Shown: positions 12,357 through 45,607 of the stretch, piece by piece
Numbering within the stretch: position 1 is the first letter of the stretch
How the letters are laid out: each line of letters starts with the position of its first letter
Assembly: GCA_000002435.2 (NCBI GenBank)
Contig: CM018792.1
Strand: one strand, 5' to 3'
Origin: Giardia intestinalis
Lineage: Eukaryota
DNA length: 64,000 bases
Translations under genes and position numbers: made by a program
Notes under the pieces: generated by a model
Database searches by the model: none
What the model saw: only the letters and a program-made list of their open reading frames with translations
Told to the model about the DNA's origin: nothing

Positions 12357-13541
12357 GACAAAAAAGAAATGCCGGTGACAGGGGTCAAGGTCGCGGTGCG
12401 CGTCCGGCCGTTCAACGCGCGCGAGAAGAAGGAGGCGGCGCGGCTCTGCGTCGACATGCCGGGCGGGGGGAAGGTCGTCCTCCGGGACGCAGACGCGAAG
12501 AAGCCCGACGCGGCGTTCGTCTACGACCACGCGTACTGGTCCCACGACGCGAGCCGCCCGTGCGCGACCCAGGACACGGTCTACGCAGACATCGGGCCGA
12601 GCGTCCTCGACAACGCGTTCGAGGGCTACAACTACACGCTCTTCGCGTACGGCCAGACGGGCTCCGGGAAGTCGTACTCGATGATGGGCGCGCCCGCGAG
12701 CGAGGCCGACGCAGGGATCATCCCGCGGGTCGGGCGCGAGCTCTTCCGCCGCGCCGCCGCCTCGCCCGCCGAGACGCAGGTCTCCGTCTCGTTCCTCGAG
12801 ATCTACAACGAGCGGCTCCGGGACCTCCTCGTCCCCGCCGCGGGCGCCCAGGAGCTCCGGATCCGCCAGGACCCCGCGGCGGGCGTCTTCGTCCAGAACC
12901 TCAGCCACCACGCGGTCGCCGACTACGACGCGATCCAGCGCCTGATCGAGCTCGGGGACCGGAACCGGACGGTCGCGGCGACGAACATGAACGCGACGAG
13001 CTCGCGCTCGCACTCCGTCTTCGCGATCGAGGTCGTCCAGACGGCGGTCCTCCGGAACGACGCGGGCGAGGAGGTCGGGCGCCACGTCAAGCGCGCCCGG
13101 GTGAGCCTCGTCGACCTCGCGGGGTCCGAGCGCCAGGGCAAGACGGGCGCGACGGGCGACCGCCTGACGGAGGGCATCAGCATCAACAAGTCCCTGACGA
13201 CCCTCGGGCGCGTCATCGAGGCGCTCGCGTACAACACGACCGCGGAGGGCCGCCGGAAGCCCCAGCACGTCCCGTACCGCGACTCCCAGCTGACGTACCT
13301 CCTCCAGCCCGCGCTCGGGGGCAACTCGATGACGTGCATGATCGCCGCGATCTCGCCTGCGTCGACGAACTACGACGAGAGCCTCTCGACCCTCCGCTAC
13401 GCAGACCGCGCCCACCAGATCGAGAACACCGTCACGAAGAACGAGTCTGCCCAGGAGAAGTACATCCGCGAGCTCGAGGACCGCGTCAAGGAGCTCGAGG
13501 CCCTCCTCGCCGGGGGCGCCCCCGCCGGGGACGCAGGTGCC
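12357..13541. repeat. Inverted repeat copy A (about 1.18 kb, ~75% GC), partner at 44303-45487
   Basis: By direct comparison, nucleotides 12369-13541 are the reverse complement of 45475-44303. The only difference I found is a/g at codon 21. Identity extends about 12 nt upstream of the ATG (aaaaagaaatg) and ends at ...gacgcaggtgc. Confidence 0.85.
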
Positions 13542-15449
13542 GGCAATGATGCGTCAAGCACTAACGTTTCCCAAATGCAGGATATCCTTGAAGAGTATAA
13601 GCGCATGCTTGACGAGGCAAACGTTGATAATGCAAAACGCCTCGAGGACGCAGAAAGAGAAAACAAGGCTTTGGAAGAAAGCCTCAACCAATTTGGTCTG
13701 TTAAAAGACTCTCCAACTCACTCCTACCTTCTCTCTCTTAATGAAGATCCTTTGCTTTCTGGCTTGCTGCGTTACAGAATCGTAGGAAAAGAGACAGACA
13801 AGAGTCATTACGTTGCTGTGTTCGGAAATCAAGAGACTGAAAACCCGAAGTTTGATGATTCCATCGTGCTTGCCAACAAGCTTGGCCTTGAATTCGAGCA
13901 TTTCACCATCACATATACAGCTACTGACAATAAGTATGTCCTTGCGTGCCTTTCTGAGACAGAACCTGTCATGCTTAATGGTGATTATCAGCTTCATGAC
14001 ATGGAGCCTGCTACTCTCTTCCACGGAGACTTCCTTAAGTGCGGAGATGGTAACGGAGCATACTACGTGTTTGTCGATCCTAAGCAACAAGAGGCCAATC
14101 CTCTTCAGATATCTCTGCTCTATGATGAGGCGGTCTCCCAGTTTGTTTCAAAGAATGGGACTATTAATCCATTGAACAAGCTTCCTGATCAATACACAGA
14201 GGAGGAGCAACACTCTACAGATGGCCAGCCTGCACAAGATGAACAGGTTTCACCGCCTTCCAGCTCCATCGATATAGAGCGCAATAAGCAGCGCCTCAAG
14301 GAAAAAGAGAAGTATCTACAGATACGTGATGAGATGCTTGATCTATTCCCCAAGCTTTGTGAGGCATCCCAGTTGGCTCGCTATTTCGGCCAGCAGATTG
14401 AGTATTCCATGGACTACGCCACTACCATTGAACAAACAAAGTCTGGATTTCCTAGTTTGAACTACGAGATATCAGTCCAGGCCTCCGTGCGGGTGTATAA
14501 TCCTGGGTTTGAAGAGTACACAAGTGATATCCACACGTGGTCGGTCACTAAGTTCCTGCGCAAGTATTCGGCACTACGTGCTCTCTTCTCCCACGCAGTG
14601 GAAATCAACGATAAGGCCAAGGCTATTGAAGACATGGAGCGTGAGCTCGCGAATGACCCGTGTCTTGGTCTTGATCATCCATTTAGGATGGATGAATCAG
14701 CCCTTCCGGAGTATGATGAATGGACACACTTCATTGGAGAGCTTCAGCTGAATATAGCAGACCTGTGCAAGACTTACACCATTTCTCGTAGACGCCTGCC
14801 AATCTTGAACCCTACTACCCGCGAGGTCATCAGCGATGTAGAATTAGAGGCCTGTATCCCTAATCCTTGCAAGCATGATGGATATGAATGTGAGGCCTTC
14901 GCCGATAGGGTCCTTAAAGTTGGGGAACCATGCTCCATATCAATCTATGTTCACAGGCTCTATGGCATCAAGCCTTTGTATAACGCCAATGTCCATGCCG
15001 TAGTTCACAAGCCGGCGTACTTGGGTATTCCTAACTCCACCCGTCCAAACCGAACGATGACGCCCCAGGAAGAGGACAGGTATCGTAATTTCATCCTGAG
15101 CACAAACCGAGCCGTAGCTTCAAACTGTTCGGGAGAGGTGTCGATAAATCCGCACGTTCGCTCGTGGGTTACTCTAGATCTACCTCCTATCAGTCAAGAA
15201 GGCTATGACTACTTCAGCAGCGGAAAGCCTCTCTATATCTCCTTCTACGGATACTACACCCAGGTCAAGAAGCAGATCCAGAATTCTGCTATTTATAACA
15301 CAAAGGAAAACACTCTTCACATCCATAAACGCAACATTATTGCAACGAAAATGGGTCCTGTGACCACCGAGGTCCGCGACGGAAAAGAGATCAAGACCAA
15401 GGCAGAATTTTATTTCATCGACATCAATGGACCCTGTGGGGCCGAGTAA
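12369..15449 (+). CDS. Kinesin-3 family motor protein (paralog A); the first ~1.17 kb encoding the motor domain is extremely GC-rich and duplicated in inverted orientation at 44303-45475
   Basis: Has the same kinesin-3 motifs (FAYGQTGSGKSYSMMG, NMNATSSRSHSVF, VDLAGSER) and an FHA-like region (HYVAVFGNQE...NGDYQL...HGDF). Codons 1-390 have G/C at almost every third position. Composition drops to about 45% GC abruptly after 13541. Confidence 0.9.
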   Translation: MPVTGVKVAVRVRPFNAREKKEAARLCVDMPGGGKVVLRDADAKKPDAAFVYDHAYWSHDASRPCATQDTVYADIGPSVLDNAFEGYNYTLFAYGQTGSGKSYSMMGAPASEADAGIIPRVGRELFRRAAASPAETQVSVSFLEIYNERLRDLLVPAAGAQELRIRQDPAAGVFVQNLSHHAVADYDAIQRLIELGDRNRTVAATNMNATSSRSHSVFAIEVVQTAVLRNDAGEEVGRHVKRARVSLVDLAGSERQGKTGATGDRLTEGISINKSLTTLGRVIEALAYNTTAEGRRKPQHVPYRDSQLTYLLQPALGGNSMTCMIAAISPASTNYDESLSTLRYADRAHQIENTVTKNESAQEKYIRELEDRVKELEALLAGGAPAGDAGAGNDASSTNVSQMQDILEEYKRMLDEANVDNAKRLEDAERENKALEESLNQFGLLKDSPTHSYLLSLNEDPLLSGLLRYRIVGKETDKSHYVAVFGNQETENPKFDDSIVLANKLGLEFEHFTITYTATDNKYVLACLSETEPVMLNGDYQLHDMEPATLFHGDFLKCGDGNGAYYVFVDPKQQEANPLQISLLYDEAVSQFVSKNGTINPLNKLPDQYTEEEQHSTDGQPAQDEQVSPPSSSIDIERNKQRLKEKEKYLQIRDEMLDLFPKLCEASQLARYFGQQIEYSMDYATTIEQTKSGFPSLNYEISVQASVRVYNPGFEEYTSDIHTWSVTKFLRKYSALRALFSHAVEINDKAKAIEDMERELANDPCLGLDHPFRMDESALPEYDEWTHFIGELQLNIADLCKTYTISRRRLPILNPTTREVISDVELEACIPNPCKHDGYECEAFADRVLKVGEPCSISIYVHRLYGIKPLYNANVHAVVHKPAYLGIPNSTRPNRTMTPQEEDRYRNFILSTNRAVASNCSGEVSINPHVRSWVTLDLPPISQEGYDYFSSGKPLYISFYGYYTQVKKQIQNSAIYNTKENTLHIHKRNIIATKMGPVTTEVRDGKEIKTKAEFYFIDINGPCGAE

Positions 15450-15502
15450 ACCTTTGATATCCAGCTGAGTGAGTTGTGGTCGGAGTTTCTTGTAACATTA
15501 AT

Positions 15503-18500
15503 ATGGGAAGTGAACGAAATCTAAAAAACGCGAATACGGAAATGGACGTTCTCAAGACGTGTCGCTATAATGACTCCTCCTACATAGGTAGTGGGGGACT
15601 TGGCGATGTATATCGGGCAACAAGCGCCAGTTCTGGTGTGAAGGTCGCGGTACGGAGGGTGGATATATCCAAGCTATCCAAAGAAGCCTGGGCAGAGCTT
15701 TCCACCATTTGTAAGCCCTACACCAATCTTATTCATCCGAACCTAGTAAGATACTATAGCGTAACCATAGAGCAGCCCTTCCAACAACTTCTTTTGGAAA
15801 TGGAACTATGTAACGGTGGCTCTCTTCAGGATGTAATCAAAAAGATGCGGTCCGATGGGACGTCGTTTGATGAGGAAACTGTTTGGAGCATAGCCTCACA
15901 GATTGCCGCCGGGCTTTCATGGCTCCACAGCCCATTCAATGGGGTGGGGGTTGTACCTCACTGTAATATAAAGCCCTCTAACATTCTTATAGGCAGTCAA
16001 GGCGTCTTTAAGTTGACTGATTTCGGTTTACAGCACGTGCCATTTAGCAGAACCATCCCCACAAGCCAATCAGGATCGGCGCTGTATCGTGCACCGGAAC
16101 TGCGGGACGGAGCCAGCGCACCGTCGATACGATCAGATATATGGTCGTTTGGTTTGCTTCTTTGGACAATGTGTACACTCCGCCACCCTCTATTTAATCT
16201 GGATGAAGTGACAGAGGAGCCTTCTATTCGTCTCCCAACATATTCCCAAGTACTCAATGATTTAATCGAGGGTTGCCTTCGTATCAACCCTACTAGTAGA
16301 CTTACAATTACCGAAGTGGTTTCGCGCATACGCGCTAACGTGCCAACTTCACACTCTAGATCCAGCTCTACTGCACGGGCTGATACACGGACTGCCTTTC
16401 AATATAAAAACACCAACAATCTACAACCTGAAATCACAAATGAAATAGTGTCTAACGCTACCTACCTAATGAGTAGTAGGCCACGCTCCGCAACTATGGC
16501 CAAGAAGAGCCGCGTTTTTGCTGATGATCCGACTGACCAATCCATCTCTACCCCTGTTACTGGCCCAGAGCAGAAGCTAACTTCCATTCGGCCCATGAGT
16601 GGTCGCGCCTCCACATTTTCCAGAAGCAACACAGATTTATCTGTCTCACAGCAGGTCGAATGCTCGGCTCTGTTAAAACAGGACCAGCTCCCAGTAGCTA
16701 CACCCAACGGGCCAGCTTCTCTCAACATCATGAGCCGCTCTCAGGCCCCTCGAGGCAATCATGATAAGTCGGGCATGCAAGCCATGGTATCCTCTACTGC
16801 TGAGGCTAGTGAGACAGTGATTCAGTCTCGGAATAAAAACCTGGCTGAATCCTTGCGCTTTCAAGGCGCATTTCCTGTTGCTCGAGAGCGACCGCTTCAA
16901 CCAGGTGTTGGCAGACCCGTACCTACTGTTTATAGTACTACGCCATCTCCCTCTTGTCCTGTGTCTGAGCCAATTGAAGATGGACTCCGAGGCGAAGAAG
17001 ACGCTCTCTACACGAGTGGAGCTGCCATTCCTCCTGCTGCTTCAAACGAGCCGCGTGCTGAAGTTAACGACCTGCCCCACACTTTACCTGAGCAGGACGT
17101 TCCACTGAGTCCTATTGTAGATAGCCTACTTATGGCCGCACAAAATTCGCGCTCTGCGTCTCGCGCAGATAGTCGCAGTGTAAAACGTGTGCCCAAGCAT
17201 ATGTCGACTACGGAGTCGTCTATAGTTCAGCAGCCATCTCTGAAAGAATCTTTGTCCGCACCTCAAGTTTCGGGGGCCTCCGATGACGAACTATCCCGGG
17301 CAATTCTCTCAAATGACTGCAACTACTTTTCGATCGTTTTGCAAAAGCTCTATGGTGACCTTTTATCCCAGGAACTTCTTGAGTCTTGTTTCAAGCAAGC
17401 TATAGCTTTCTCTGCTCACTTGGTGCTTCCAATTCTAGCAGAGAATCTCTTAGCAGCTGGAATAAAGATCAAGACCGGCTTTGGACTAGAATCGCGACAG
17501 GGCGTGGATGTAGATTTTCCCAGCGAGCTGATGATTGCCGCGCAAAAAGGTGACGCGGGATTGGTTCGTGCCAGCCTTCGTGACATGGGGCAAATCTACA
17601 AAAATCGGACAGCTCTAATGCTCGCTGCAGAACATGGCTCTGTTGAGTGCATCAAGCTATTGCTGGGAGAGTTGGCGATACAAAATTCAATGGGGGAGAC
17701 GGCTCTTGTTCTCGCAGCTAAGAAGGGGTACGTTGATTGCATCTCTCTCTTGCACGCAGAAGGAAATCTAACCTACTCGGAGTATGATAAGTTTTCTGAC
17801 GGCGCACTCGTCTCTGGATTGACGCCCCTTATGGCATCTATTCGAAGCGGCCAGAGACACTGCATTCATGAATTCCAATATCTTCTTAAGCGACAAGCAA
17901 GCAATGGAGCAACAAGTCTGATGTATGCTGTACTGGGCGAGCTGGATGCCTGCATACCATATTTGGTGGATGAGTGTCGGATCACCGATAACCTTGGCGA
18001 GTCAGCACTCATGAAAGCAGTCGATGGCCCAAGCATGCAGGTTGTCGAGTTCCTAAGCAAGTACGAAGGAGGAATCCAGGACATAGAAGGGAGAACGGCG
18101 CTTCTACGTGCTATTCAGAACAAGAATGTAACATATGTCAAGGCCATGCTTCGCATTCAGAAGCAGTCGTCGGAGCGTGACATAGGGCTGGTTGCAAACG
18201 ATGGGACCACGCTTTTCACTGCAGCAATCAAAAGTGGTTCAGAAAACCTTATTTATCTACTCAATGCCGAGGACATGTCTGCGTCAAAATATCTCCGTTC
18301 AGGTGCGCGTTCTGCAAACATACAGAATGTTCAGCAGTCAGGGTCGGTTATTAAACTAGAAAACCCCAGCGAAGACACAGCTCAGCAAGGATCTGTTCAA
18401 CACACGCCTCAGCAGACACACCAAACGTTGGCTGAGAGGCTACAAGCGGTCAACAATTCACTTGCATCAGCCCAGCCTTCCTTATCCAAAGAACTACTCG

Positions 18501-20035
18501 ATAAGCATCAGCACGACACTCTTTTTGCACTGCTCTCCGGCGATGTTTCTGTTGATGAACTCGACTTCAGCTGCTTCCGCTCCCTTGCAGGTAAAACAGA
18601 TAGAGATGGCTACACCGCTCTAATGATAGCTGCCATCAATGGCAATCAGGCCTTTGTAGAGAAAATTGTGAGCACACCAAGCATGCACGAGGAACTAGGG
18701 AAAGTTGATCGTGAAGGGCGTAGCGCACTAATACTTTCAATACTACACCAGCGGGTGGCCTGCGCGAAGATACTCGTGACAGTGCCAGGAGAACTCGGTT
18801 GTAGCATGCCCGACGGAGTCACCCCCTTGATTCTAGCGATTCAGAAGCGATTTTATAGCATTGTCCCTTCTCTCCTAGAAGTCTCAGGGCAGCGCACCAA
18901 GGAAGGAAAGAGCGCACTTATGATAGCGATGGAACTAAATGCGCCCCTGCGTTCATTGGGGAGCCTCCCAGAAAGAGAAGCAACCCTGTGCAATGCCTTA
19001 GGGGAAAATGCACTCTTTTACACTATCAGAAACAACAAGCATCTCTATCTAGCCCGGCTTGCCGAGGTTGCCAATAATCGCCCAAATGACGCTGGGCTTT
19101 ATGCGATCAACATTGCTGTAGAACAAGATTGCTGGCAATGTTTCAAAACCATGTATGAATATGAGGCCCGCGCTGTCATTGGAACGCGAGAGGCCATCGG
19201 AGCGCCGTTCAAGACGTTGATCTTATCCATACTGCGGAACAATAGCATCCGTATACTTGAAAATATGAGTGCCCTTCTCCGTACTAAGCCTTTCAGGGTC
19301 CAACTTCCATCTACACAAGTCTCCGTGCTCGACAGTCTATCCCCCACTATGCTGGCAGCCAGAGAAGGAAACGAGGCAGAACTTTGCGCGCTGATCTGTA
19401 ATCAGCGTTCAGGCTCTAAAGCAAATGCCCATATTGTCCAAGTGTACAACGGTAGGACCGCCCTGATGGAGGCCGCAGCACGGGGCTACGCTTCTTGTGT
19501 AAGGCTACTTCTAGGTGAGGTGGGGTTTCGAGATGAAAATGGCCGCACTGCGCTGATGCTTGCAGCACAGAATGGGCACCTTGAATGCGTCCATCTGCTA
19601 CTCATAGAAGCAGGCGTTAAGACGATAACCCGCGAAACGGCTCTAACTCTTGCAGTGGCCAACGATATGACAGAGTGTGCAGATGTCCTTCTATGTAGAG
19701 AGTATTGGCTATCTGGAACCTCCTCTATGCTGCCGTTCAGTTTGGGGATACAGCACTCAAAGGCGTGTGCAGAAGTTGTCTCGATTAAGCGGGTTGTGAG
19801 TCTGTATAGGACATACTACAAGGATTATGAGGCGCAGATCGGCCGATGCCACATATGCCTCGATGAACTGTGTACTGTCCGGTGTCTTCCATGCAGTCAT
19901 GATGTTGCATGCCCGTCCTGCGTGCGAGATATTCTGGAGGCAACGCGTGCAGGAAACACTAAACGCAATCGCTGCCCAATCTGTAGAGCAGAGATTGAAA
20001 ACTGGACACAAGTATTTGTTGAAAGCAGTCTTTAG
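15503..20035 (+). CDS. Multi-domain protein: degenerate protein-kinase domain (pseudokinase, NEK-like) + large ankyrin-repeat array + C-terminal C3HC4 RING finger
   Basis: Glycine loop IGSGGLGDVY. The catalytic loop is HCNIKPSN (HRD Asp replaced), and VAVRR replaces the VAIK lysine, so it is probably inactive. Many ANK repeats span roughly 17.5-19.7 kb (TALMLAAEHGSVECIKLLL, TALMIAAINGNQAFVEKIV, TALMLAAQNGHLECVHLLL). C-terminus is CHICLDELCTVRCLPCSHDVACPSCV...CPICR. The track start at 15476 is a GTG, and the first ATGs are at 15503 and 15542. Confidence 0.75.
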   Translation: MGSERNLKNANTEMDVLKTCRYNDSSYIGSGGLGDVYRATSASSGVKVAVRRVDISKLSKEAWAELSTICKPYTNLIHPNLVRYYSVTIEQPFQQLLLEMELCNGGSLQDVIKKMRSDGTSFDEETVWSIASQIAAGLSWLHSPFNGVGVVPHCNIKPSNILIGSQGVFKLTDFGLQHVPFSRTIPTSQSGSALYRAPELRDGASAPSIRSDIWSFGLLLWTMCTLRHPLFNLDEVTEEPSIRLPTYSQVLNDLIEGCLRINPTSRLTITEVVSRIRANVPTSHSRSSSTARADTRTAFQYKNTNNLQPEITNEIVSNATYLMSSRPRSATMAKKSRVFADDPTDQSISTPVTGPEQKLTSIRPMSGRASTFSRSNTDLSVSQQVECSALLKQDQLPVATPNGPASLNIMSRSQAPRGNHDKSGMQAMVSSTAEASETVIQSRNKNLAESLRFQGAFPVARERPLQPGVGRPVPTVYSTTPSPSCPVSEPIEDGLRGEEDALYTSGAAIPPAASNEPRAEVNDLPHTLPEQDVPLSPIVDSLLMAAQNSRSASRADSRSVKRVPKHMSTTESSIVQQPSLKESLSAPQVSGASDDELSRAILSNDCNYFSIVLQKLYGDLLSQELLESCFKQAIAFSAHLVLPILAENLLAAGIKIKTGFGLESRQGVDVDFPSELMIAAQKGDAGLVRASLRDMGQIYKNRTALMLAAEHGSVECIKLLLGELAIQNSMGETALVLAAKKGYVDCISLLHAEGNLTYSEYDKFSDGALVSGLTPLMASIRSGQRHCIHEFQYLLKRQASNGATSLMYAVLGELDACIPYLVDECRITDNLGESALMKAVDGPSMQVVEFLSKYEGGIQDIEGRTALLRAIQNKNVTYVKAMLRIQKQSSERDIGLVANDGTTLFTAAIKSGSENLIYLLNAEDMSASKYLRSGARSANIQNVQQSGSVIKLENPSEDTAQQGSVQHTPQQTHQTLAERLQAVNNSLASAQPSLSKELLDKHQHDTLFALLSGDVSVDELDFSCFRSLAGKTDRDGYTALMIAAINGNQAFVEKIVSTPSMHEELGKVDREGRSALILSILHQRVACAKILVTVPGELGCSMPDGVTPLILAIQKRFYSIVPSLLEVSGQRTKEGKSALMIAMELNAPLRSLGSLPEREATLCNALGENALFYTIRNNKHLYLARLAEVANNRPNDAGLYAINIAVEQDCWQCFKTMYEYEARAVIGTREAIGAPFKTLILSILRNNSIRILENMSALLRTKPFRVQLPSTQVSVLDSLSPTMLAAREGNEAELCALICNQRSGSKANAHIVQVYNGRTALMEAAARGYASCVRLLLGEVGFRDENGRTALMLAAQNGHLECVHLLLIEAGVKTITRETALTLAVANDMTECADVLLCREYWLSGTSSMLPFSLGIQHSKACAEVVSIKRVVSLYRTYYKDYEAQIGRCHICLDELCTVRCLPCSHDVACPSCVRDILEATRAGNTKRNRCPICRAEIENWTQVFVESSL

Positions 20036-20091
20036 TTTTATATTCTATTAAACAATCTGTAAATGCAATCTCCTCCTTGGTTATGCGAACT

Positions 20092-21138
20092 TTATGCGAA
20101 CTTCCCATAGATAGGTGTTCCACACTTTCCACAACAACCATCCTTAAGATTGCAAACCTTACCGTCAAAGCCTGTCATGCGAGAAATAAGCAGTTCGCCA
20201 CACTGGGGGCAGCTCGTATTCAAGTACGATGTATCCCGCACATTGCCAGCATAAAGATAGAGGAGCCCGGCCTCCTTGCCGAAGGCCAAGGCACGCTCTA
20301 GCGTTTCTGTCGGAGTTCGTTCTTTGTCCAGCATTTTGTAGTCAGGATGAAACGCAGAAACATGCCACGGAATGTCCTTTCCAACAGATGCGATGAAATT
20401 AGCTATATCCTGCAGCTCCTCGCCTGAATCATTCATGCCGGGAACAATCAGAGTCGTGACTTCAACTATGACTTTTTTCGTGCTATAGAGGAATTTAATT
20501 GTGTTCTTGACTGGCTCAAGACTACCGCCCATGATCTTTCTGTACGTTTCCTGTCGAAATGTCTTCAGATCGACGTTGATTGCCGAGATCATTCCCACCA
20601 ACGCATCCAGTTGCTCCTTGCTTTCAAACCCATTCGACACATAGACGTATGATATGCCTTCTTTGGCTGCTAAGCAAGCAATGTCATAAGAATACTCAAA
20701 CCATATGCTGGGCTCGTTGTAAGTGGCTGCAATATGTCTGATGCGTCTCCTCTTGCAAATAAGTATGATCTCATCCGGCGTTAGAATGCGCCCGTCAGAT
20801 CTCTCCAGACAATAGTCTTCGATATCCTGCACGTTAGGCTTGTCCATACTGATGCTCCAATTCTGGCAAAACTTGCATGAAAAGTTACAGCCTATGGTGC
20901 CTATACTTAGTATCGCCTCTCCGGGATAATAGTGATAGAGGGGTTTCTTTTCCATTGGGTCAACGTGGAGGGCGCTAGGCTTCCCCCAGACGGCCAAGTA
21001 CAGTTTTCCATTATCGTTATAACGGACACCGCAGATCCCCGATTTTCCTTCTCCAATGGTACAATAATGAGAACAACAAGTGCACTGAACGCTCCCGGGG
21101 GTCTTGCCTGGTCGGTAGAGAACACACTCACGCTTCAT
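20092..21138 (-). CDS. Radical SAM enzyme, AmmeMemoRadiSam-system / PFL-activase-like type (bacterial/archaeal-type)
   Basis: CxxxCxxC cluster motif GCNFSCKFCQNWSIS, preceded by a Cys-rich N-terminus (CTCCSHYC...GICGVRY) and EKKPLYHYYPG. This matches my recollection of the AmmeMemoRadiSam radical-SAM family. Confidence 0.7.
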   Translation of the reverse strand: MKRECVLYRPGKTPGSVQCTCCSHYCTIGEGKSGICGVRYNDNGKLYLAVWGKPSALHVDPMEKKPLYHYYPGEAILSIGTIGCNFSCKFCQNWSISMDKPNVQDIEDYCLERSDGRILTPDEIILICKRRRIRHIAATYNEPSIWFEYSYDIACLAAKEGISYVYVSNGFESKEQLDALVGMISAINVDLKTFRQETYRKIMGGSLEPVKNTIKFLYSTKKVIVEVTTLIVPGMNDSGEELQDIANFIASVGKDIPWHVSAFHPDYKMLDKERTPTETLERALAFGKEAGLLYLYAGNVRDTSYLNTSCPQCGELLISRMTGFDGKVCNLKDGCCGKCGTPIYGKFA

Positions 21139-21230
21139 TTTTTGCCAAGGAGTCGTTCCGTGCGTGGCTGTTTAAGGACACACTTAGGATTTTGAGGAAG
21201 TTAGTCGTTATCACAATATACTGTGACTAA

Positions 21231-23672: not shown

Positions 23673-23717
23673 TTAATTTGGGGCATCTTCGGCAATCCTT
23701 GGACGAAATTCAAAAAC

Positions 23718-26558: not shown

Positions 26559-26852
26559 AACCTTCTTCATCAAAAGGCAACGAGGCAAGGATCTGCGATA
26601 GAGGCTAAGCGGGCAGACCGAGCGGCTGCTCTGGCGGCGATTAAAAACAGTAAATCCGAGAAAGCCCCGCAGAAAACCTTTAGTCAACCGACAAAACCTG
26701 AGGCCAGAAAGGTCGTCGTTGTCAATGCTGGGCAAAAGAAAATCGTCAACGCCGCGCCTTCCTCTGGTGCAGCTCCACGGGTGGCAAATACTCCACAAGC
26801 AAGGGGTGACTCTGGTCCTGCATCTAGGCGCTCCCCGACCCAGGCACAAGGA

Positions 26853-28970: not shown

Positions 28971-28976
28971 GAACCA

Positions 28977-28983: not shown

Positions 28984-29002
28984 ATAAAAACCATACTCTT
29001 CC

Positions 29003-34135: not shown

Positions 34136-34170
34136 TACGGATATCTTTAGTTTACAAAAGATACGGACCT

Positions 34171-34968: not shown

Positions 34969-35000
34969 GGTGGAAGTAAATTTAATAATACAGGATTCTT

Positions 35001-35945: not shown

Positions 35946-35982
35946 AAAGTGGCCTGGCAATACCCTGCTCCATAATTTCGGT

Positions 35983-35989
35983 AGTGAAC
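35983..35989 (+). promoter_or_regulatory. Putative polyadenylation signal AGTGAAC
   Basis: Located ~38 nt after the stop of the 35001-35945 gene. Confidence 0.3.
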
Positions 35990-36066
35990 CTGGTTTTAGA
36001 TGTCCCAGAGCCTGTCCATGTCCGCCATAATAAGACGATCTCAAAATTAAAATAAATTAAAAACCT

Positions 36067-39000: not shown

Positions 39001-41682
39001 AAGCTACACATGGAAGAGCGCAACGGCAATGCTAAGCGCCTCCTCATGGAGGACCCTTACATCGACCACGCGCTCATAGGAACCTTCATTCTGGAGTCTC
39101 CGACACACCGGACCGATGACTTTTTAGTCGATCTTGCAATGACATCGCTGACCATCGGGGCTTTTGGACCAACGACTGCAGGCGCTGATTTTTCTGACCA
39201 CATTATTAACGGAGAATGCGCCAGGATGCTGGTCTTAGTTGCCTACGCAGGGAGTGCTTACAAGGAGCTGGCTGAGAGGCTCCTCTTGCACAAGTGTAGT
39301 GAGCTTTGGCAGCTGGCTCTTGTCGGAGTTATGAACGAGGACCCAGCTTCCGACGTCATCAAAGCAATCACGCAGGGTGGGATGCGTCCGATGAGCATGC
39401 ACAGGGACATGCTCTTGCAGGTCTTGGCGCACAGCCCGCCAATTCCTCTCGACACGCTCAGCGATGCACAAATTTTCGTTCTATCTTCGTCTATTCTTGC
39501 CATTAAGAATGAGAGCGATGCAATTCCAAGATATCTACAGGCGATACTAGAAAAGATCATCACTTCTCCGGGCTCTGTGCACGCAAGCAATCCGGGCATG
39601 CAGAATCTTCTCATCGTTACCGCCCTAAATACAAAGGACTATCCTAAGGTGTCGGCCCTTATTCGCTCTGCAGACATGTGCTATGACCAGGACGTAATTG
39701 CAAAGGCTTGCGTGGAAACGGCAAAGAAGAACGAGTACCCGCCTCTCTACGAGGACGCCTTTGAGGTTTTCCACCGCGCCGGGCGTCCCATTGATGCCAT
39801 TCGAGTACTTTTGGACAACATCTCCATAGACCGTGGGATCACTTACGCTAACTCTGTGGGCCTTCCTGAAGTGTGGTCCTTAGTTGGATCGGCCCAGCTC
39901 GAAAAGGCAAGTGCTTATGCATCCGAGGATAATGGGCGCTTCGCGTTGAAATTTGCTTGTGACGCAATAGCATCGTATTTGACCGGAAGATGGACCGCTG
40001 ACTACCGTAATCTTATAATCACGTCATTCAAGGTTTCAAAGGCGTTTATGCACACGCACTCTGTTGAGGTTCGGAGTGAGCTGGCCGCTTTGCTGGAGTA
40101 TTTAAGGATGGCTCGTGTTGTGGTGGCACAGAAGGGGGAGACGTCTTCCCAAGCAGAGATAGATACCGCAGTCATGTATTGCCTGGCCAGGCTGGATGAC
40201 TATGGTGCCCTCAGCGAGTTTCTGGAGTCAGTCAATCCACGCGATAGTACTGTGATACCGAATCGCGGAGGAATAAAGGAGGTCGGAGAGAAGTGCTTTG
40301 CTGAGGAGCATTACAAGGCTGCAAAGTACTTCTTTGAGTTTGTCGGTGACTGGTCACGACTATCTCTTACGTTGGTCAAGCTTCGCTGCTTGAAAGAGGC
40401 GGTGGAGGCTGCTACACGCGCCGCAGATCCTGAGTGCTGGAAGGCGGTAGCTGCAGAGTGCCTGGAGATCCGCGATTTTGAGCTTGCAAAGTCAGTCTTC
40501 CTCAACCTCGTCCTCGTAGAGTCTGAGCTTCCGTCGATAGTGCAATATTATGAGGAGTATGGTTTTATTGAGGAGCTCCTCGAGGTCCTGGAGGCAGGCG
40601 CCGAACAGCCGCAAGCAGCCACATACACCTCTATGGAGACGAATATATTCACCATCCTGGCAATACTTTACTGTAAGTACATGTGGATTGTTCGCAAGAC
40701 AGACCCCCAGCGTCTACAAACGTATATCAAGACGCACGGAAACAAAATCCATATCCCGACTCTTCTGCACTGGACCCGTGAGACAAGGCTCTGGGGAGAG
40801 TACGCGTATCTGCTGGCAGCGTCCCGTGACTTCGACAAGGCTGTCGTTGAGATGATAGCCCATCCCCCGTCGTCTTTCAATCATGATGTTATGAAGAAGG
40901 TGATAGGACGGGTCTCAAATCCTGAGTTGGTTGCCCAAGTCGTAAGCTTCTATATTGAGTACTCCCCAGAGTATCTCTGCGACTTCTTAAAGGCTTGTCA
41001 GCTCGGGGTTCCAAATGCCGACGGCTCTCCAGGGATCCCTGCTGCCTTGGATCCTATTCGAGTGATTGCTATGGTGAGATCCTACGATTGCGTCCCTATG
41101 ATTAAGTCGTACCTGGAATTGTTTGTAGGTGCGCACAACCAGGAAATTAACGAGACCTTGATAAAGATTTACCTTGAGAGCTATGACGACGAAGGCCTGA
41201 GGAGACTTATTGCCGCAACGACTGCCTATGATGCACACGCACTCTTAGACAATTTGGTATCGGAGGATCAGACAGATGACATGCGGAAGCTTGCGGTAGG
41301 GCTCTATGGACGCCTGAATCGATACGACGAGGGCATCAAATTTGGTCTTCAGAATTGGTTTTATGAGGACGCTGCGGAGTGTGCAGCGGACTCGGGACAG
41401 ATCGAGCACTGCGAGGCATTGCTACGCTTAGTCTGCAGCTCGCAGTTCCCCACGCCGAAGATCAGAAAGGAGGTCTTTGCTGTCATTCTCATTCGCTGCG
41501 GCCACTGCATCAGGCCCGACGTAGTCATGGAGTTGGCCTGGGTCAACAGAATGACAGACTACATGATGCCATACATGATCTCCACGTTGCAACGCTACGG
41601 GTCTGCAGTCCGCACACTTGCGGGGTCGATTGCAGAAGCAAGAGGCATGATTCCGGCGCAGCAAGCACCCCAACAACACTAG
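36067..41682 (+). CDS. CHC: Clathrin heavy chain (divergent), 1871 aa
   Basis: The N-terminus aligns to the CHC propeller start pattern (INELFTLRDAQVPEGS...LTVSSSSGICVCV...GEAANLTVVNTVNP, compare IRFQEHLQLQNLGIN...LTMESDKFICIRE...GEQAQVVIIDMNDP). The size and the long alpha-solenoid CHCR-like remainder fit. An AT-rich 'aaaattaaaataaattaaaaacct' precedes the ATG. Confidence 0.7.
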   Translation: MASALSINELFTLRDAQVPEGSCSPEHLTVSSSSGICVCVTTGEAANLTVVNTVNPQATKTFPIQAQHAIQHRKNPNIVVLRTPVLLQTLDVSTMTPYGRFDFPNPIGVDYWGWATDEKLALVCPDAVYFWNCMTGEFSPGFARDVSLTSTYSNSRITDLAVSSDADWVAITALGTDQANHTQGMIQLYCFSRAYTRMLSGQCVTFVDWQLDATRPKTTLLAYAHKPTGSQEITINIMEPAPQVGADGASISGFTTKAVQATVSAALVGVDHPLFLRGKEKYGFLYMFSKQGNVTLVDIYSGLLIYQGPISGEMVFAIGTCYEGGTFSDTHDFIGITTDGRCYGIGVDKINLVNYVMTKRGQPDVAYAIALRTGIRGADSLFQQKLDGYLGQYQWSEAAELVKIAPAGVLRTKATIDRFLAGAAFTAPGAPTPIMIYLTRMLENDGKLAIEEESMELAKFLVQTSNVSTIETYIKEKRFFATEGLGDYLASVGLEQPSFTTYANAGCHEKAIAWLIAHNQYAIIPQYAQKFPEYTPDYPRIISQALKQAEQRPDGASTIESIYQFSLSITQALDATTDGDKILDIADCFADIGRVNEATTILLEVCKRYNYSDDTVIYQSMVIELNRGVNQAVVDAIQAKGVLARINRAEITKRSEESGLYQRAFEFCDSDAECRRIASTYAAKLGKSIFSSPRWYGAYIKRASRFSNPTDDVIKSLFAFQQQMLEITIGGERIYADHVAMGFALSPIVVSNVSLCVTVVKVFEKYGMGNSEALYLFLSMIAPTCLDSSIHNFLLRTILQLDSKTLELTHIVAEDQYLDPNECFTIMTTTTPASPDAFLQAFLTFCERFHLGKKLGLFLTDSITNKVLGKDTFFTLNAATIVEAFIGGHGVAQAHDLLFGLFEGGVLAVPERPALDAVFSADMLSKLMEKPAVQAGCDINKVVDACFTSSRTLKVGRSLLEKRLASGTTDTFVHTAFAKLHMEERNGNAKRLLMEDPYIDHALIGTFILESPTHRTDDFLVDLAMTSLTIGAFGPTTAGADFSDHIINGECARMLVLVAYAGSAYKELAERLLLHKCSELWQLALVGVMNEDPASDVIKAITQGGMRPMSMHRDMLLQVLAHSPPIPLDTLSDAQIFVLSSSILAIKNESDAIPRYLQAILEKIITSPGSVHASNPGMQNLLIVTALNTKDYPKVSALIRSADMCYDQDVIAKACVETAKKNEYPPLYEDAFEVFHRAGRPIDAIRVLLDNISIDRGITYANSVGLPEVWSLVGSAQLEKASAYASEDNGRFALKFACDAIASYLTGRWTADYRNLIITSFKVSKAFMHTHSVEVRSELAALLEYLRMARVVVAQKGETSSQAEIDTAVMYCLARLDDYGALSEFLESVNPRDSTVIPNRGGIKEVGEKCFAEEHYKAAKYFFEFVGDWSRLSLTLVKLRCLKEAVEAATRAADPECWKAVAAECLEIRDFELAKSVFLNLVLVESELPSIVQYYEEYGFIEELLEVLEAGAEQPQAATYTSMETNIFTILAILYCKYMWIVRKTDPQRLQTYIKTHGNKIHIPTLLHWTRETRLWGEYAYLLAASRDFDKAVVEMIAHPPSSFNHDVMKKVIGRVSNPELVAQVVSFYIEYSPEYLCDFLKACQLGVPNADGSPGIPAALDPIRVIAMVRSYDCVPMIKSYLELFVGAHNQEINETLIKIYLESYDDEGLRRLIAATTAYDAHALLDNLVSEDQTDDMRKLAVGLYGRLNRYDEGIKFGLQNWFYEDAAECAADSGQIEHCEALLRLVCSSQFPTPKIRKEVFAVILIRCGHCIRPDVVMELAWVNRMTDYMMPYMISTLQRYGSAVRTLAGSIAEARGMIPAQQAPQQH

Positions 41683-41710
41683 GCCCTGTTCTGGATTTCA
41701 GAGCAAACAA

Positions 41711-42172
41711 CTACTCTTGTAAATTTGACGTCTTCGATGCTTTCTCTGTTTCGAGCTTGGATTCTAGTCGCCGGCGAGCCCTCCAAAGAACTTTGCGGCT
41801 GACCGAGCAACGAAGAAGTGTGGAGACTATGCTGTAGTAGTGGGCTAACGGGAGATTAGGGGCCTCCCTAAGAACAGCTGCAGCCACGTTATCCACATGG
41901 GCAAGAAGGGGGAAAGGACTTTCGTCGGTGTGGAGAACATGGTGCAGAGCAGCCTCGTCGGCAATGACTGAGCCGTCTACTCGTATGGAAATTCGTACAG
42001 ATGCGGAGCAGCCTGCAGATTTGCAGATAAGATGAATACGTCGAGCATCTGCTTTTAGGACTCGCCAGCGGGACCCTCTTGTGACGATATGGTCCGAGTA
42101 ATACCTAAGAGCGTCGTCCTTCGAGCAGAAGCGCCTCTGCGAATCAAGCTGCTGAACAACAGCTGCAGACAT
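41711..42172 (-). CDS. WRKY-like zinc-finger DNA-binding protein (WRKY-GCM1 superfamily)
   Basis: GSRWRVLKADARRIHLICKSAGCSASVRISIRVDGSVIADEAALHHVLH matches WRKY architecture: a WRKYGQK-like strand, then C-x4-C-x21-H-x-H with the SAGC core as in plant WRKY (YRCTSAGCPVRK...HNH). The track start at 42187 is GTG, and the first ATG is at 42172, 15 bp from the kinesin-B stop. Confidence 0.55.
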   Translation of the reverse strand: MSAAVVQQLDSQRRFCSKDDALRYYSDHIVTRGSRWRVLKADARRIHLICKSAGCSASVRISIRVDGSVIADEAALHHVLHTDESPFPLLAHVDNVAAAVLREAPNLPLAHYYSIVSTLLRCSVSRKVLWRARRRLESKLETEKASKTSNLQE

Positions 42173-42187
42173 GGGAAATTTGTTCAC

Positions 42188-45100
42188 TTAGTGTCCAGTA
42201 TCTGTTTTCGTCTGATCCACGAAAATAAACTTCTTTATAATAAGAACTTGCTCTCCGTTGATCTCCTTGAATCCATCCTCCTTGGTCTGGGTCCTGACGA
42301 TGTTTGTGCTAACAATAGCGACCTTCTTCTTGGACGGATCGGGGAGCGCGCTGTCTTTGATCTCGGGCACAAGGGAGTCGGCATAGGCCGAGGTGTACCC
42401 ATAAAGACTGACCTCTAAGCCGGTCCCACTAGTGCGCAGCCATTCCAAGACATCGTCCTGCTTAAAGTAGCTCGTCTTAAGATCCATGTAAATAGTTGAG
42501 TCGAGCGCAGGGTTTGGCGAGAGGTCTGAACTAGAGGCTGTCTGAAAGGTATAGCCCATGTCCAGTAACCTTCGGCGAAACTCATTTTCTTGATAAACGG
42601 AGAGGCGTTTTCCCTTCGGACGTCCAGCGTCCGGGTTGACAAACCATGGCATATGAATCACAGCGTGAACCTTCTTGCAGCACTGGGTGGGTACATTGTA
42701 CGCCTTCTTGAAGTAAGCAGCAATGGTCGTTACAGGGCTTTCGTTCTGAACCAAATTTGCAACATCACATGCGAGGCACTCGGCTCCGTGGTGTGAATAC
42801 CCCGAGCCCAGAAGTGAGAGCGATACATCAATGCTAGTGGCTGCCTTACCCGAGTAGTCATAAATCGGAACGGAAAAGACATCCGTCTCACACGTCTCGA
42901 GAAGACCCGACAGAGGGATACGCCCAACCCCGATAAGGTGAGTTAGGGTCTGGTTATAGATATCTGCCTCCAGATCGAAAGGAAACTCGTCATCATCCTC
43001 TAGATCCCTGTCTGCACTCTCATGTGCCCTGCGCACAGCCTCTTCCTTACCAAGAGTCATCGCAAGTCCGTACATGCGCCTCATGCCGGAGAGTCGCAGC
43101 CCAAATTTCTCTAGTGCCCAGACCTGTCTGATAAGCTTGCGATCCCTGGTTTTGCTGGGGGCAGCCGTGGCCGTCACCAAAATCTCTACGAGTATACCAC
43201 TCAGATCGTCATCAATCTGATCCGCTCGTAAGTCCTTCGTCATTGGATGATTTTTGGACATATTGCGAATGGTCTGACATCGAGCAGCCTGGCGTAGAGA
43301 CGTCGGACTGATAGATGTACGAGCTTGTGCAGCAAAGCGAATGTCATAACAAAAGTACTCTGCTATGGAATTCGCCTCGCAGATAAATGGATAGAGCTGA
43401 CGCAGCACCTCGTGAACCTTCTTTTCATAGGTGGTCCGCTCATCATCGTTTCCAAAATCTGCATAAAAGCTTTCATTGATGTCTGTCTGCACGTTATCTA
43501 AGCCAGGCGTAATTCCAAATGCATCGTCCATGGTAACGGAAACATTCTCCTTAGACACAGGATCATCTCCTATAGGTCTCTGTGCAGTGTCCTTCCCAGA
43601 GCTCTGATAATACGTGTATTCACGTAGTGCAAGATCATACGTTATCTCTGGCTCTACGTAGTCGTAATCCTGTTCCAGAGACTGTTTGACTGCAGCCGCA
43701 CGTGCAGGAGGATCGTAGTAACGATAGAAGGATGACTGGGCCGCAGACCCGCACTTGATACGGTCGCCGTGACGGAGCTGGTGAGTAGAACCAGCAGCTA
43801 TCTGCCTTCCATTGATGTAGAGAGCCCCTTTCGCGCTGAGGGGCCTTATAGTGGCTTCAGTGACTTTGGGAAAGATAGGATTAGCGGTTGAGTCAACGAC
43901 TTTGCCTGTCAAGGAAATAATAAAGTGCTCACCAAGCACACCGAGTTTGCTGACAAGGGCTATCCTGCACTGGCACTCTGTCGGCCCACTATCATCTGCA
44001 CCAACGACAACAGTAACAGGACGAGCATCTTTAAGATCATTCTCAGAACATAACGTATAAATTAGCTGGCCATTATCAGAAGCATTTGAGCTCAAATTGG
44101 ATATATACGGAGTGGTAATTTCTGACCCAAAAGCTGCCGCGAGGCCCATCTTTTTGAGCTTATCTTGTAGCTCTTGTCTGTTCTGCTCCGCTCTGGCTAG
44201 CTTCTCCTCTAGAGATTGATTCCCTTCCTTAAGAAGTCTGTCATACTCGGCTATCTTTGCTTCTAATTCTAAGCGCTCAGCATCAGACAGGCCTGGTTCT
44301 ACAGCACCTGCGTCCCCGGCGGGGGCGCCCCCGGCGAGGAGGGCCTCGAGCTCCTTGACGCGGTCCTCGAGCTCGCGGATGTACTTCTCCTGGGCAGACT
44401 CGTTCTTCGTGACGGTGTTCTCGATCTGGTGGGCGCGGTCTGCGTAGCGGAGGGTCGAGAGGCTCTCGTCGTAGTTCGTCGACGCAGGCGAGATCGCGGC
44501 GATCATGCACGTCATCGAGTTGCCCCCGAGCGCGGGCTGGAGGAGGTACGTCAGCTGGGAGTCGCGGTACGGGACGTGCTGGGGCTTCCGGCGGCCCTCC
44601 GCGGTCGTGTTGTACGCGAGCGCCTCGATGACGCGCCCGAGGGTCGTCAGGGACTTGTTGATGCTGATGCCCTCCGTCAGGCGGTCGCCCGTCGCGCCCG
44701 TCTTGCCCTGGCGCTCGGACCCCGCGAGGTCGACGAGGCTCACCCGGGCGCGCTTGACGTGGCGCCCGACCTCCTCGCCCGCGTCGTTCCGGAGGACCGC
44801 CGTCTGGACGACCTCGATCGCGAAGACGGAGTGCGAGCGCGAGCTCGTCGCGTTCATGTTCGTCGCCGCGACCGTCCGGTTCCGGTCCCCGAGCTCGATC
44901 AGGCGCTGGATCGCGTCGTAGTCGGCGACCGCGTGGTGGCTGAGGTTCTGGACGAAGACGCCCGCCGCGGGGTCCTGGCGGATCCGGAGCTCCTGGGCGC
45001 CCGCGGCGGGGACGAGGAGGTCCCGGAGCCGCTCGTTGTAGATCTCGAGGAACGAGACGGAGACCTGCGTCTCGGCGGGCGAGGCGGCGGCGCGGCGGAA

Positions 45101-45475
45101 GAGCTCGCGCCCGACCCGCGGGATGATCCCTGCGTCGGCCTCGCTCGCGGGCGCGCCCATCATCGAGTACGACTTCCCGGAGCCCGTCTGGCCGTACGCG
45201 AAGAGCGTGTAGTTGTAGCCCTCGAACGCGTTGTCGAGGACGCTCGGCCCGATGTCTGCGTAGACCGTGTCCTGGGTCGCGCACGGGCGGCTCGCGTCGT
45301 GGGACCAGTACGCGTGGTCGTAGACGAACGCCGCGTCGGGCTTCTTCGCGTCTGCGTCCCGGAGGACGACCTTCCCCCCGCCCGGCATGTCGACGCAGAG
45401 CCGCGCCGCCTCCCTCTTCTCGCGCGCGTTGAACGGCCGGACGCGCACCGCGACCTTGACCCCTGTCACCGGCAT
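42188..45475 (-). CDS. Kinesin-3 family motor protein (paralog B); N-terminal ~390 codons are the GC-rich inverted copy of 12369-13541
   Basis: First ~383 aa are identical to paralog A except K21R. The tail then diverges (coiled coil, FHA-like ...INGRQIAAGSTHQLRHGDRI...) and has normal GC. Confidence 0.9.
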   Translation of the reverse strand: MPVTGVKVAVRVRPFNAREKREAARLCVDMPGGGKVVLRDADAKKPDAAFVYDHAYWSHDASRPCATQDTVYADIGPSVLDNAFEGYNYTLFAYGQTGSGKSYSMMGAPASEADAGIIPRVGRELFRRAAASPAETQVSVSFLEIYNERLRDLLVPAAGAQELRIRQDPAAGVFVQNLSHHAVADYDAIQRLIELGDRNRTVAATNMNATSSRSHSVFAIEVVQTAVLRNDAGEEVGRHVKRARVSLVDLAGSERQGKTGATGDRLTEGISINKSLTTLGRVIEALAYNTTAEGRRKPQHVPYRDSQLTYLLQPALGGNSMTCMIAAISPASTNYDESLSTLRYADRAHQIENTVTKNESAQEKYIRELEDRVKELEALLAGGAPAGDAGAVEPGLSDAERLELEAKIAEYDRLLKEGNQSLEEKLARAEQNRQELQDKLKKMGLAAAFGSEITTPYISNLSSNASDNGQLIYTLCSENDLKDARPVTVVVGADDSGPTECQCRIALVSKLGVLGEHFIISLTGKVVDSTANPIFPKVTEATIRPLSAKGALYINGRQIAAGSTHQLRHGDRIKCGSAAQSSFYRYYDPPARAAAVKQSLEQDYDYVEPEITYDLALREYTYYQSSGKDTAQRPIGDDPVSKENVSVTMDDAFGITPGLDNVQTDINESFYADFGNDDERTTYEKKVHEVLRQLYPFICEANSIAEYFCYDIRFAAQARTSISPTSLRQAARCQTIRNMSKNHPMTKDLRADQIDDDLSGILVEILVTATAAPSKTRDRKLIRQVWALEKFGLRLSGMRRMYGLAMTLGKEEAVRRAHESADRDLEDDDEFPFDLEADIYNQTLTHLIGVGRIPLSGLLETCETDVFSVPIYDYSGKAATSIDVSLSLLGSGYSHHGAECLACDVANLVQNESPVTTIAAYFKKAYNVPTQCCKKVHAVIHMPWFVNPDAGRPKGKRLSVYQENEFRRRLLDMGYTFQTASSSDLSPNPALDSTIYMDLKTSYFKQDDVLEWLRTSGTGLEVSLYGYTSAYADSLVPEIKDSALPDPSKKKVAIVSTNIVRTQTKEDGFKEINGEQVLIIKKFIFVDQTKTDTGH

Positions 45476-45487
45476 TTCTTTTTTTAC
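44303..45487. repeat. Inverted repeat copy B (partner of 12357-13541)
   Basis: See copy A. The outer end coincides with the kinesin-B start codon (45475). The (TAGGG)3 tract lies 45 bp beyond it. Confidence 0.85.
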
Positions 45488-45605: not shown

Positions 45606-45607
45606 TG

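Follow-up and report, generated by a model that had tools for sequence, protein, structure and literature searches.

Several systems are known in which near-identical sequences on one chromosome keep exchanging information. The tufA/tufB genes of Salmonella and Escherichia coli, reportedly described in this respect by Abdulkarim and Hughes in 1996, are two inverted near-identical coding sequences that are kept alike by RecA-type gene conversion, while crossovers between them invert the intervening segment. An enrichment in GC of converting paralogs has reportedly been found for mammalian Hsp70 and histone genes, by Galtier in 2003 and Kudla in 2004, and for ribosomal DNA (rDNA), by Escobar in 2011 (cited in PMC10123126); in all of these concertedly evolving paralogs the GC content of third codon positions (GC3) is raised relative to the genome, and the rise is attributed to GC-biased gene conversion. 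The human Y-chromosome palindromes, on which Rozen in 2003 and Hallast in 2013 are said to have reported, have inverted arms that are more than 99.9% identical and undergo arm-to-arm GC-biased conversion, and their spacer can invert. Here we describe a locus of Giardia intestinalis WB clone C6 that resembles each of these systems. Within a stretch of 64,000 nucleotides (nt) of contig CM018792.1, hereafter the window, the 5' parts (heads) of two convergent kinesin-3 genes, kinA and kinB, form a near-perfect inverted repeat of extreme GC content, and the remaining parts (tails) are unrelated and of ordinary composition; a third kinesin-3 paralog, kinC, lies beside them (Table 1). From sequence comparisons across the genus, we consider it likely that gene conversion between the heads with GC-biased resolution, together with an occasional crossover that inverts the DNA between them, explains the locus.

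A repeat search recovered a single long repeat in the window, the inverted pair of 1181-nt arms, and the lack of any other long repeat excludes a chance match. Each arm runs from 9 nt 5' of the ATG to codon 391, and beyond both of its ends similarity falls to the random level at once. Base-by-base comparison revealed one mismatch between the arms. The same comparison confirmed what an earlier note on this DNA had read from the letters alone, namely the coordinates, the near-identity of the heads, the single a/g difference and the resulting lysine or arginine at residue 21. The Pfam motor domain PF00225 covers amino acids (aa) 11-351 in both proteins (E = 5e-106 in kinA, about 1e-106 for the pair) and aa 11-358 in kinC. 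The arm, comprising codons 1-391, therefore takes in the motor, the neck linker and the neck coil and ends in a Gly/Ala-rich linker.

The composition of the arms departs from that of the rest of the window by a wide margin. GC content reaches 0.69-0.71 in 500-nt segments of the arms and stays at 0.43-0.55 in all remaining segments of the 64 kb; taken as a whole, the arms have GC 0.70 (about 0.47 elsewhere) and GC3 0.98 (about 0.51 elsewhere). A or T stands in third position in just 7 of 385 head codons, and in none of the 139 two-fold codons. In 385-codon segments of the other genes of the window, GC3 is 0.509 +/- 0.053 with a maximum of 0.675, which places the arms about 9 standard deviations away. 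The composition step that the earlier note had located at the repeat boundary, with G/C at third positions on one side and a normal kinC for comparison, is equally plain: GC3 is 0.93-1.00 in each 30-codon segment of codons 1-390 and 0.3-0.6 from codon 391 onwards, and the kinC head has 0.55. Rfam, tRNA and tandem-repeat scans of the window gave no hits, and no RNA gene or satellite accounts for the GC islands. Several additional open reading frames (ORFs) of 329-467 aa lie in other frames or antisense within the arms (12333-13415 on the minus strand, 12560-13549 on the plus strand, 44429-45496 on the plus strand and 44283-45686 on the minus strand). They were rejected as genes, being most likely by-products of the scarcity of stop codons in DNA of 70% GC, and could be mis-annotated as such.

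To follow the heads through the genus, we compared assemblages A1 (isolate WB), A2 (DH), B (GS and BAH15c1) and E (P15) with Giardia muris; in E the second copy is known over 386 nt only. The kinA and kinB heads are 99-100% identical to each other within WB, DH, assemblage B and G. muris, and in P15 they agree throughout the part known for both. Identity of the heads falls to 76-78% when G. muris is compared with G. duodenalis. Synonymous divergence (dS) between the paralogous heads is 0.000, and on the PacBio chromosome of G. muris the two heads agree at each base from -9 to +1165. Tail identity is 22-30% for the two paralogs, and 44-46% for the orthologs of G. muris and G. duodenalis; since each tail has a clear ortholog in G. 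muris, the kinA/kinB duplication predates the split of the two species. The earlier note had also considered that orthologs might carry the GC-rich head without the duplication, which would have made it an ancient compositional feature, and the orthologs proved to carry the duplication too.

Essentially all of the 71 variable sites over seven duodenalis heads sort by lineage and none sorts by paralog. This holds up to the boundary, where both paralogs read GGAPAGDAGA in assemblage A and GGAPVEDADA in E. Identity stops abruptly at -9 and +1172 in WB, at -9 and +1165 in G. muris and at about -22 in assemblage B, so that the tract ends are nearly the same across lineages, yet not fixed. In the left flank of assemblage B (contigs L006 and L007, 9975-10000, against window 12340-12368), the approximately 22 nt 5' of the ATG are of the right-flank type, TATACCCGAACGAAAAAAGAA; compared with A and E, the conversion tract there takes in about 12 nt more of the promoter. 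The arms differ from each other at four positions in DH and at one in WB, which dates the last homogenisation to about the A1/A2 split. In DH, the kinA arm has also lost 15 nt at its 3' edge, five codons within LAGGAPAGDAG (contig L005 about 11145-11160, against window 13513-13527), and the kinB arm is intact; a deletion confined to one arm suggests that the tract edge is homogenised less efficiently than the interior. These comparisons show that the kinA and kinB heads evolve in concert, in a process, likely gene conversion, that is both old and still running. The recent or ongoing and possibly GC-biased conversion suggested by the earlier note gains from two sides, from lineage-specific substitutions shared by the two heads in A1, A2, B, G. 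muris and E (386 nt) and from the bias in fixation towards G/C.

The shift in composition extends to all codon positions. At first, second and third positions, GC stands at 0.67/0.47/0.98 for the head, compared with 0.54/0.35/0.52 for the tails and 0.50/0.38/0.55 for the head of kinC; the heads of G. muris have a GC3 of 0.88 and its tails one of 0.63. Silent divergence is low, with a dS between assemblages A and B (WB and GS) of 0.10 in the head against more than 3 in the saturated tails (proportion of synonymous differences 0.74), and between A and E of 0.065 in the head against 0.62 in the tails. The classes of change are affected unequally. At four-fold sites, differences between weak (W, A or T) and strong (S, G or C) bases amount to 3.7% in the head versus 45.4% in the controls for A and B, about 12-fold fewer (p = 1e-37), and to 3.1% versus 29% for A and E. 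Differences between G and C, per four-fold site that is strong in both sequences, amount to 4.8% in the head versus 3.4% in the controls for A and E, and to 7.2% versus a saturated 15.6% for A and B. Divergence between G and C close to the control level, with the W/S differences missing, argues against both recent introgression and a general nucleotide constraint. The pattern fits a process that prefers G/C over A/T and is blind to G versus C.

The direction of change points the same way. Young changes, present in one copy only, comprise eight from S to W and one from W to S, and those fixed in both copies on the A branch, as polarised by sites at which E equals B, comprise five from W to S, six between S and S and one from S to W (Fisher p = 0.011 against the young changes). 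Comparison of the young and the fixed spectra suggests that mutation in the tract is AT-biased and fixation GC-biased, a combination better explained by biased gene conversion than by GC-biased mutagenesis. The protein has followed. Gly, Ala, Arg and Pro together make up 33% of residues in the head and 21% in the kinC head; Lys and Arg number 14 and 32 against 30 and 21, and Ala 52 against 28. The nonsynonymous divergence (dN) of the head is four times that of the kinC head. Several of the fixed W to S changes on the A branch replace Lys by Arg, and the K21/R21 difference between the WB arms is another such change; both DH copies have the derived G and thus R21, which suggests that a W to S change has been caught in WB midway through homogenisation.

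Two other sources of the GC shift have to be weighed at this point. Translational selection might have recoded the motor to G/C-ending optimal codons, with the identity of the copies incidental to selection plus conversion. All 26 optimal codons of Giardia do end in G or C, codon adaptation tracks GC content at synonymous third positions (GC3s), and the GC3s of genes reaches up to 99% (PMC8393687). Within one and the same mRNA, however, GC3 drops from 0.98 to about 0.5 in a few codons at the repeat end, in G. duodenalis as well as in G. muris, and kinC, which is far more conserved, has a GC3 of 0.55. First and second codon positions and amino acids are shifted too, with the four-fold excess in head dN over kinC, the opposite of what highly expressed genes show, and G- and C-ending codons swap at about the neutral rate. 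We regard selection as an improbable source of the pattern. Alternatively, recombination could bring GC-biased mutation with it, error-prone repair synthesis making G or C. The restriction of the GC enrichment to the recombining tract suits this idea, and the same equilibrium composition is expected from a mutational as from a fixation bias. The spectrum of the nine youngest changes (8:1 in favour of S to W), set against fixed changes that run from W to S or between S and S, speaks against it, and we hold it to be improbable as well. GC-biased resolution of conversion between the heads remains the likely explanation for the composition of the arms.

The block between the arms differs in orientation between assemblages. 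When contigs were compared with the window by blastn, the 30.7-kb block of assemblage B proved to have the opposite orientation to that of A; the breakpoints fall within the arms, and the flanks are colinear. DH, in a single contig, has the WB gene order. A GS contig leads from the reverse-complemented right flank (window 55623-45485) through a head into tailA, and a BAH15c1 contig from the left flank (window 2427-11975) through a head into tailB and on to clathrin; the accession order of the first GS assembly puts kinC (EET02137) near kinB (EET02139). Long-read gene coordinates were taken from the draft annotations of the nanopore hybrid assemblies AWB, BGS and beaver (PMC7048089 supplements). 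In AWB and beaver, genes 102096, kinA, clathrin and 102110 lie on one strand with spacings as in the window. In BGS, 102110 lies at 785.7 kb on the minus strand, kinA at 790.8 kb and clathrin at 814.4 kb on the plus strand, and 102096 at 831.4 kb on the minus strand. The BGS order is a clean inversion of the inter-head segment, the flanks on either side having kept their places.

In G. muris, orthologs of the four right-flank genes are colinear upstream of head plus tailA, so that, judged by orthologous flank genes, the right-flank side precedes kinA there, and kinC stands directly upstream of head plus tailB, followed by clathrin. G. muris has the junctions of the B type, which identifies these as ancestral and the orientation of assemblage A as derived. 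A simple inversion as the sole difference of G. muris was rejected: its kinesin genes are divergent, with 21.6 kb between the heads, and the block of radical SAM, 813-aa and 946-aa kinase genes is locally inverted, which calls for further rearrangements. The heads are nevertheless again in inverted orientation to each other.

Orientation is uniform in three assemblage A genomes (WB, beaver and DH) and in all assemblage B assemblies. The earlier note had proposed that recombination between the arms could flip the block silently. On the evolutionary scale the flip stands, assemblage B having the opposite orientation with breakpoints in the arms, but no evidence of flipping within populations was found, the A genomes being uniform. 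As to its silence, the proteins are indeed unchanged, but the 5' flanks of both genes, and with them the promoters, are exchanged, because the stretch of identity extends no more than 9-22 nt upstream of the ATG. In Giardia, promoters are short and AT-rich and lie a few tens of nt at most from the start codon. Any effect of the swap on the expression of the two genes is something that we infer. Two Logan contigs of 3.2 kb, L003 (SRR2642194) and L004 (SRR2642197), run from approximately 150-160 nt 5' of kinA to 10 nt past its stop codon, across the whole repeat. Since a repeat of this kind should interrupt a k-mer assembly, the two contigs may stem from transcripts, in which case kinA would be far more abundant than kinB.

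On top of conversion, the inversion might be a working switch: the block would flip often in clonal populations and swap the promoters of two cargo-specific isoforms, the inverted heads being maintained as a recombination device, a shared motor cassette for two tails. If true, an almost intron-less eukaryote would possess a switch in which homologous recombination exchanges promoters. Both orientations do occur in nature; the promoters lie outside the repeat, so that a flip rewires expression; and G. muris and G. duodenalis share the inverted geometry although they differ by other rearrangements. Nanopore data also suggest many intra-isolate inversions in Giardia generally (PMC7048089). Against the switch, orientation is uniform within A and within B, so that one fixed inversion event explains the data. 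Among the genes in and beside the block for which Pfam results were available, several of them without a hit, the families found (kinases, radical SAM, nucleosidase, clathrin and RtcB) include no recombinase. The arms, at 1181 nt, are not short recombination sites, and the transcript-like contigs from two runs show only the junction of left flank, head and tailA. We find both frequent flipping and a maintained recombination device quite improbable and keep to conversion between the heads with a rare crossover.

A further possibility is that the heads were overwritten recently from a foreign or subtelomeric GC-rich donor, as the earlier note had suggested, or were introgressed between assemblages. 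Their 95% nucleotide identity between A and B, where the flanks have 72-80%, would agree with this, and conversion between sub-assemblages has been proposed for GC-rich genes of Giardia (PMC12669663). A donor did not come to light: a third protein with this head is absent from annotated Giardia proteomes, contig ends are hundreds of kb (more than 200 kb) away from the locus, and the head is a Giardia kinesin-3 by descent, with 62% identity to kinC and 76-78% to the G. muris heads. As for introgression, silent divergence between G and C runs at about the control rate, with only the W/S differences missing, which makes the heads as old as the assemblages. We therefore give this possibility very little weight. 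Least credible of all is a single true head duplicated or mis-joined in the WB assembly: near-perfect 1.2-kb repeats are classic sites of mis-assembly and the P15 and GS short-read contigs do break inside the head, but both full genes with the same head are present in WB (Sanger and PacBio), DH, GS, BAH15c1, the PacBio G. muris genome and three nanopore hybrids, a real single-nucleotide polymorphism separates the arms with a state that varies by isolate, and the chimera that the earlier note had allowed for is refuted by the recurrence of the structure in seven independent assemblies.

The proposed course of events would then be the following. kinA and kinB are ancient inverted paralogs on one chromosome, and breaks or stalled forks in one head would be repaired from the other. 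Non-crossover outcomes would keep the 1.18-kb motor-plus-neck segment identical, and the spread of the tract would stop where homology ends, about 9-22 nt 5' of the ATG on one side and in the linker past the neck coil on the other. If G/C alleles are preferred when differences between the copies are resolved (GC-biased gene conversion), the bias would over a long time raise G/C at silent sites to about 98% and enrich the protein in Ala, Gly, Arg and Pro, K to R replacements being an example. An occasional crossover would invert the DNA between the arms; an inversion has taken place at least once, on the assemblage A lineage, swapping the promoters and leaving the proteins intact. We infer both the repair mechanism and mismatch repair as the source of the bias. 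The inverted orientation may be the only arrangement to have survived, because with direct repeats a crossover would remove about 30 kb of genes.

Several points weigh against this reading. The conversion and inversion events are deduced from comparisons, none having been directly observed. The polarised counts are small (21 changes), and the "within-B" young changes set kinA of one isolate beside kinB of another. Judging from the differences between the arms in DH and WB, homogenisation is not faster than A1/A2 divergence, and "ongoing" applies on that time scale. The orientation of assemblage E (P15) may be B-like; it is read from a 454 contig that includes just 58 nt of flank, and the two heads do not differ over the part known for both. 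Codon-usage selection could contribute to the GC3 signal; the optimal codons of highly expressed Giardia genes are all G/C-ending (PMC8393687). Lastly, a GC bias that is stronger in ectopic conversion than in genome-wide allelic conversion is left unexplained.

Table 1. Features of the kinesin-3 locus, with positions in the 64,000-nt window.
Feature	Position	Strand	Description
kinC	7007..10228	+	third kinesin-3 paralog XP_001709734, 1073 aa; outside the conversion tract, internal control; head GC3 0.55
left 5' flank	11992..12359	+	RtcB-head intergenic region; precedes head plus tailA in assemblage A and head plus tailB in B; unlike the right flank upstream of -9
left arm	12360..13540	+	9-nt leader and kinA codons 1-391: motor aa 11-351, neck linker, neck coil, start of Gly/Ala linker
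kinA	12369..15449	+	kinesin-3 GL50803_102101 / XP_001709737, 1026 aa; tail aa ~392-1026 of ordinary composition, ortholog of G. muris P0003 tail
sole arm difference	12430	+	A, giving AAG Lys21, ancestral (kinA); G as complement of 45414, giving AGG Arg21, derived (kinB)
block between arms	13541..44303		30,763 nt; inverted in assemblage B relative to the window; holds both kinesin tails
kinase-ankyrin-RING gene	15476-20035		in block; 1519 aa
radical SAM	20092-21138	-	in block, followed by 813-aa ORF
kinase	23718-26558		in block, followed by 729-aa and 1710-aa ORFs
MTA/SAH nucleosidase	34171-34968	-	in block, followed by 314-aa ORF
clathrin heavy chain	36067-41682		in block, followed by 158-aa ORF
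kinB	42188..45475	-	kinesin-3 XP_001709752, 1095 aa; marginal FHA match in tail; tail 22% identical to kinA tail, ortholog of G. muris P0005 tail
right arm	44304..45484	-	same 1181 nt, forming the head of kinB; one base differs from left arm
right 5' flank	45485..45604	-	120-nt divergent intergenic region shared with 866-aa gene; precedes head plus tailB in assemblage A and head plus tailA in B and P15

The kinesin-3 assignment follows database names, and the nearest matches outside Giardia are of the KIF13, KIF28 and unc-104 types. The Pfam FHA domain scores 22.8 bits in kinB (cut-off 20.7) and 20.4 bits, just under it, in kinC, and kinA has no hit at E <= 0.01. The K-loop of loop 12, before PYRDS, reads ESKKKHK in kinC and AEGRRKPQ (duodenalis) or PAGQKKPQ (muris) in the heads; its positive charge is partly retained, as Arg. 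The kinC head shares 62% amino-acid identity with the kinA/kinB head. The peptide MPVTGVKVAVR is common to all three paralogs and to G. muris, and the first 30 codons of kinC (7007-7096) have a GC3 of 0.83, against about 0.5 for the rest of the gene. Conversion with kinC was considered and rejected: it shares only a 65-nt stretch at 78%, and MPVTGVKVAVR is encoded by different silent bases among the paralogs, so that the 5' end of kinC is not a conversion tract.

kinC is strongly conserved, with 97-99% amino-acid identity between assemblages, a dN of 0.007-0.017 between WB and assemblage B and 82-84% identity to G. muris. The tails of kinA and kinB change rapidly, with about 85% identity between assemblages and 44-46% to G. 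muris. By these measures, constraint differs greatly among the three clustered kinesin-3 genes. A Logan contig of run SRR31929897, from a Giardia-like organism, encodes a kinC-like kinesin-3 (P0006; L010 10001-13249) that is Ala/Pro-rich and 39% identical to kinA; tried as a third-species comparison, it was uninformative, being the single kinesin on its 48.5-kb contig.

Upstream of kinA, an RtcB tRNA-ligase gene (10243-11991, minus strand) separates kinC from the adjacent head in all G. duodenalis assemblages. G. muris has no RtcB at that site, and kinC and kinB stand there in direct tandem with a 52-nt spacer (L002 9948-10001). The annotated length of RtcB differs by assembly (582, 627 and 478 aa). 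On the other side, positions 45605-57385 hold four consecutive same-strand genes of 866, 810, 1035 and 964 aa that match no Pfam family; a faint CCDC39-like match was found in G. muris. Their coding strand is strongly A-rich, with an AT skew of 0.2-0.3, and they are colinear with four G. muris genes at about 31% identity. They probably encode fast-evolving coiled-coil proteins. Downstream of kinA in G. muris (L001 13127-21122, against window 15476-26558), the block of radical SAM, 813-aa and 946-aa kinase genes is the one noted above as locally inverted, and no clear counterpart of the 1519-aa kinase-ankyrin-RING gene is seen there.

Giardia has two nuclei and is tetraploid, heterozygosity in assemblage A is very low, its sexuality is disputed, and recombination in it has long been debated. 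The locus would offer a natural record of ectopic homologous recombination, conversion as well as crossover, active across the genus, with a bias so strong that silent sites have become fixed at 98% G/C and a motor protein has been reshaped (K to R replacements, more Ala). It could be used as an assay, in which orientation is read by junction PCR or long reads, and the rate and bias of conversion by marked silent sites. The orientation of the block separates assemblage A from B and is a fixed structural marker. "Frozen" GC-rich tracts of this kind diverge 10-30 times more slowly at silent sites and can mimic recent introgression or inter-lineage conversion in genome scans. It is also possible that biased conversion, and not selection, underlies part of the correlation between GC3 and expression in Giardia, as well as the GC-rich rDNA. 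For the Giardia rDNA, such conversion has been suggested (PMC10123126), GC-rich genes are enriched among putative AI:AII conversion events (PMC12669663), and an earlier survey of duplications left conversion in Giardia unresolved (PMC2829556). Our literature search found no paper on this locus, on its domain-limited homogenisation or concerted evolution, or on the A/B inversion, and genes of the kinA/kinB region are absent from the structural-variant table of PMC7048089, among the rows listed.

The components of the locus are known, and the locus is a new and unusually clean example of known processes. In tufA/tufB, homogenisation covers the entire genes and the two products have the same function. 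Here it is confined to the N-terminal 391 codons, and the tails are unrelated; the host is a tetraploid eukaryote, the copies are spaced 31 kb apart, and the tract has undergone an extreme shift in GC. Unlike the Hsp70 and histone genes and rDNA, the Giardia heads form a two-copy, domain-limited tract with a GC3 step from 0.98 to 0.5 inside single ORFs, and they come with an adjacent unconverted paralog as a control and with orthologous pairs in several lineages. The arms of the Y palindromes extend over tens of kb to Mb, enclose short spacers and hold whole genes, whereas those described here are 1.18 kb long, comprise parts of two genes and lie 31 kb apart.

Two further systems compare with the inversion. 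As in the FLNA-EMD inversion of the eutherian X chromosome and the int22h inversion of F8, the breakpoints fall in inverted homologous arms, nothing is gained or lost, and orientation depends on the lineage; the arms in those cases are mostly non-coding or contain whole genes, whereas here they are the 5' halves of two expressed genes, so that promoters are swapped and ORFs stay intact. As in bacterial switches (Hin, Fim, shufflons and similar), inversion between inverted repeats pairs regulatory DNA anew with coding DNA. The bacterial switches, however, act at high frequency on short repeats by means of a dedicated site-specific recombinase, whereas the Giardia repeats are 1.18-kb coding arms with no recombinase evident.

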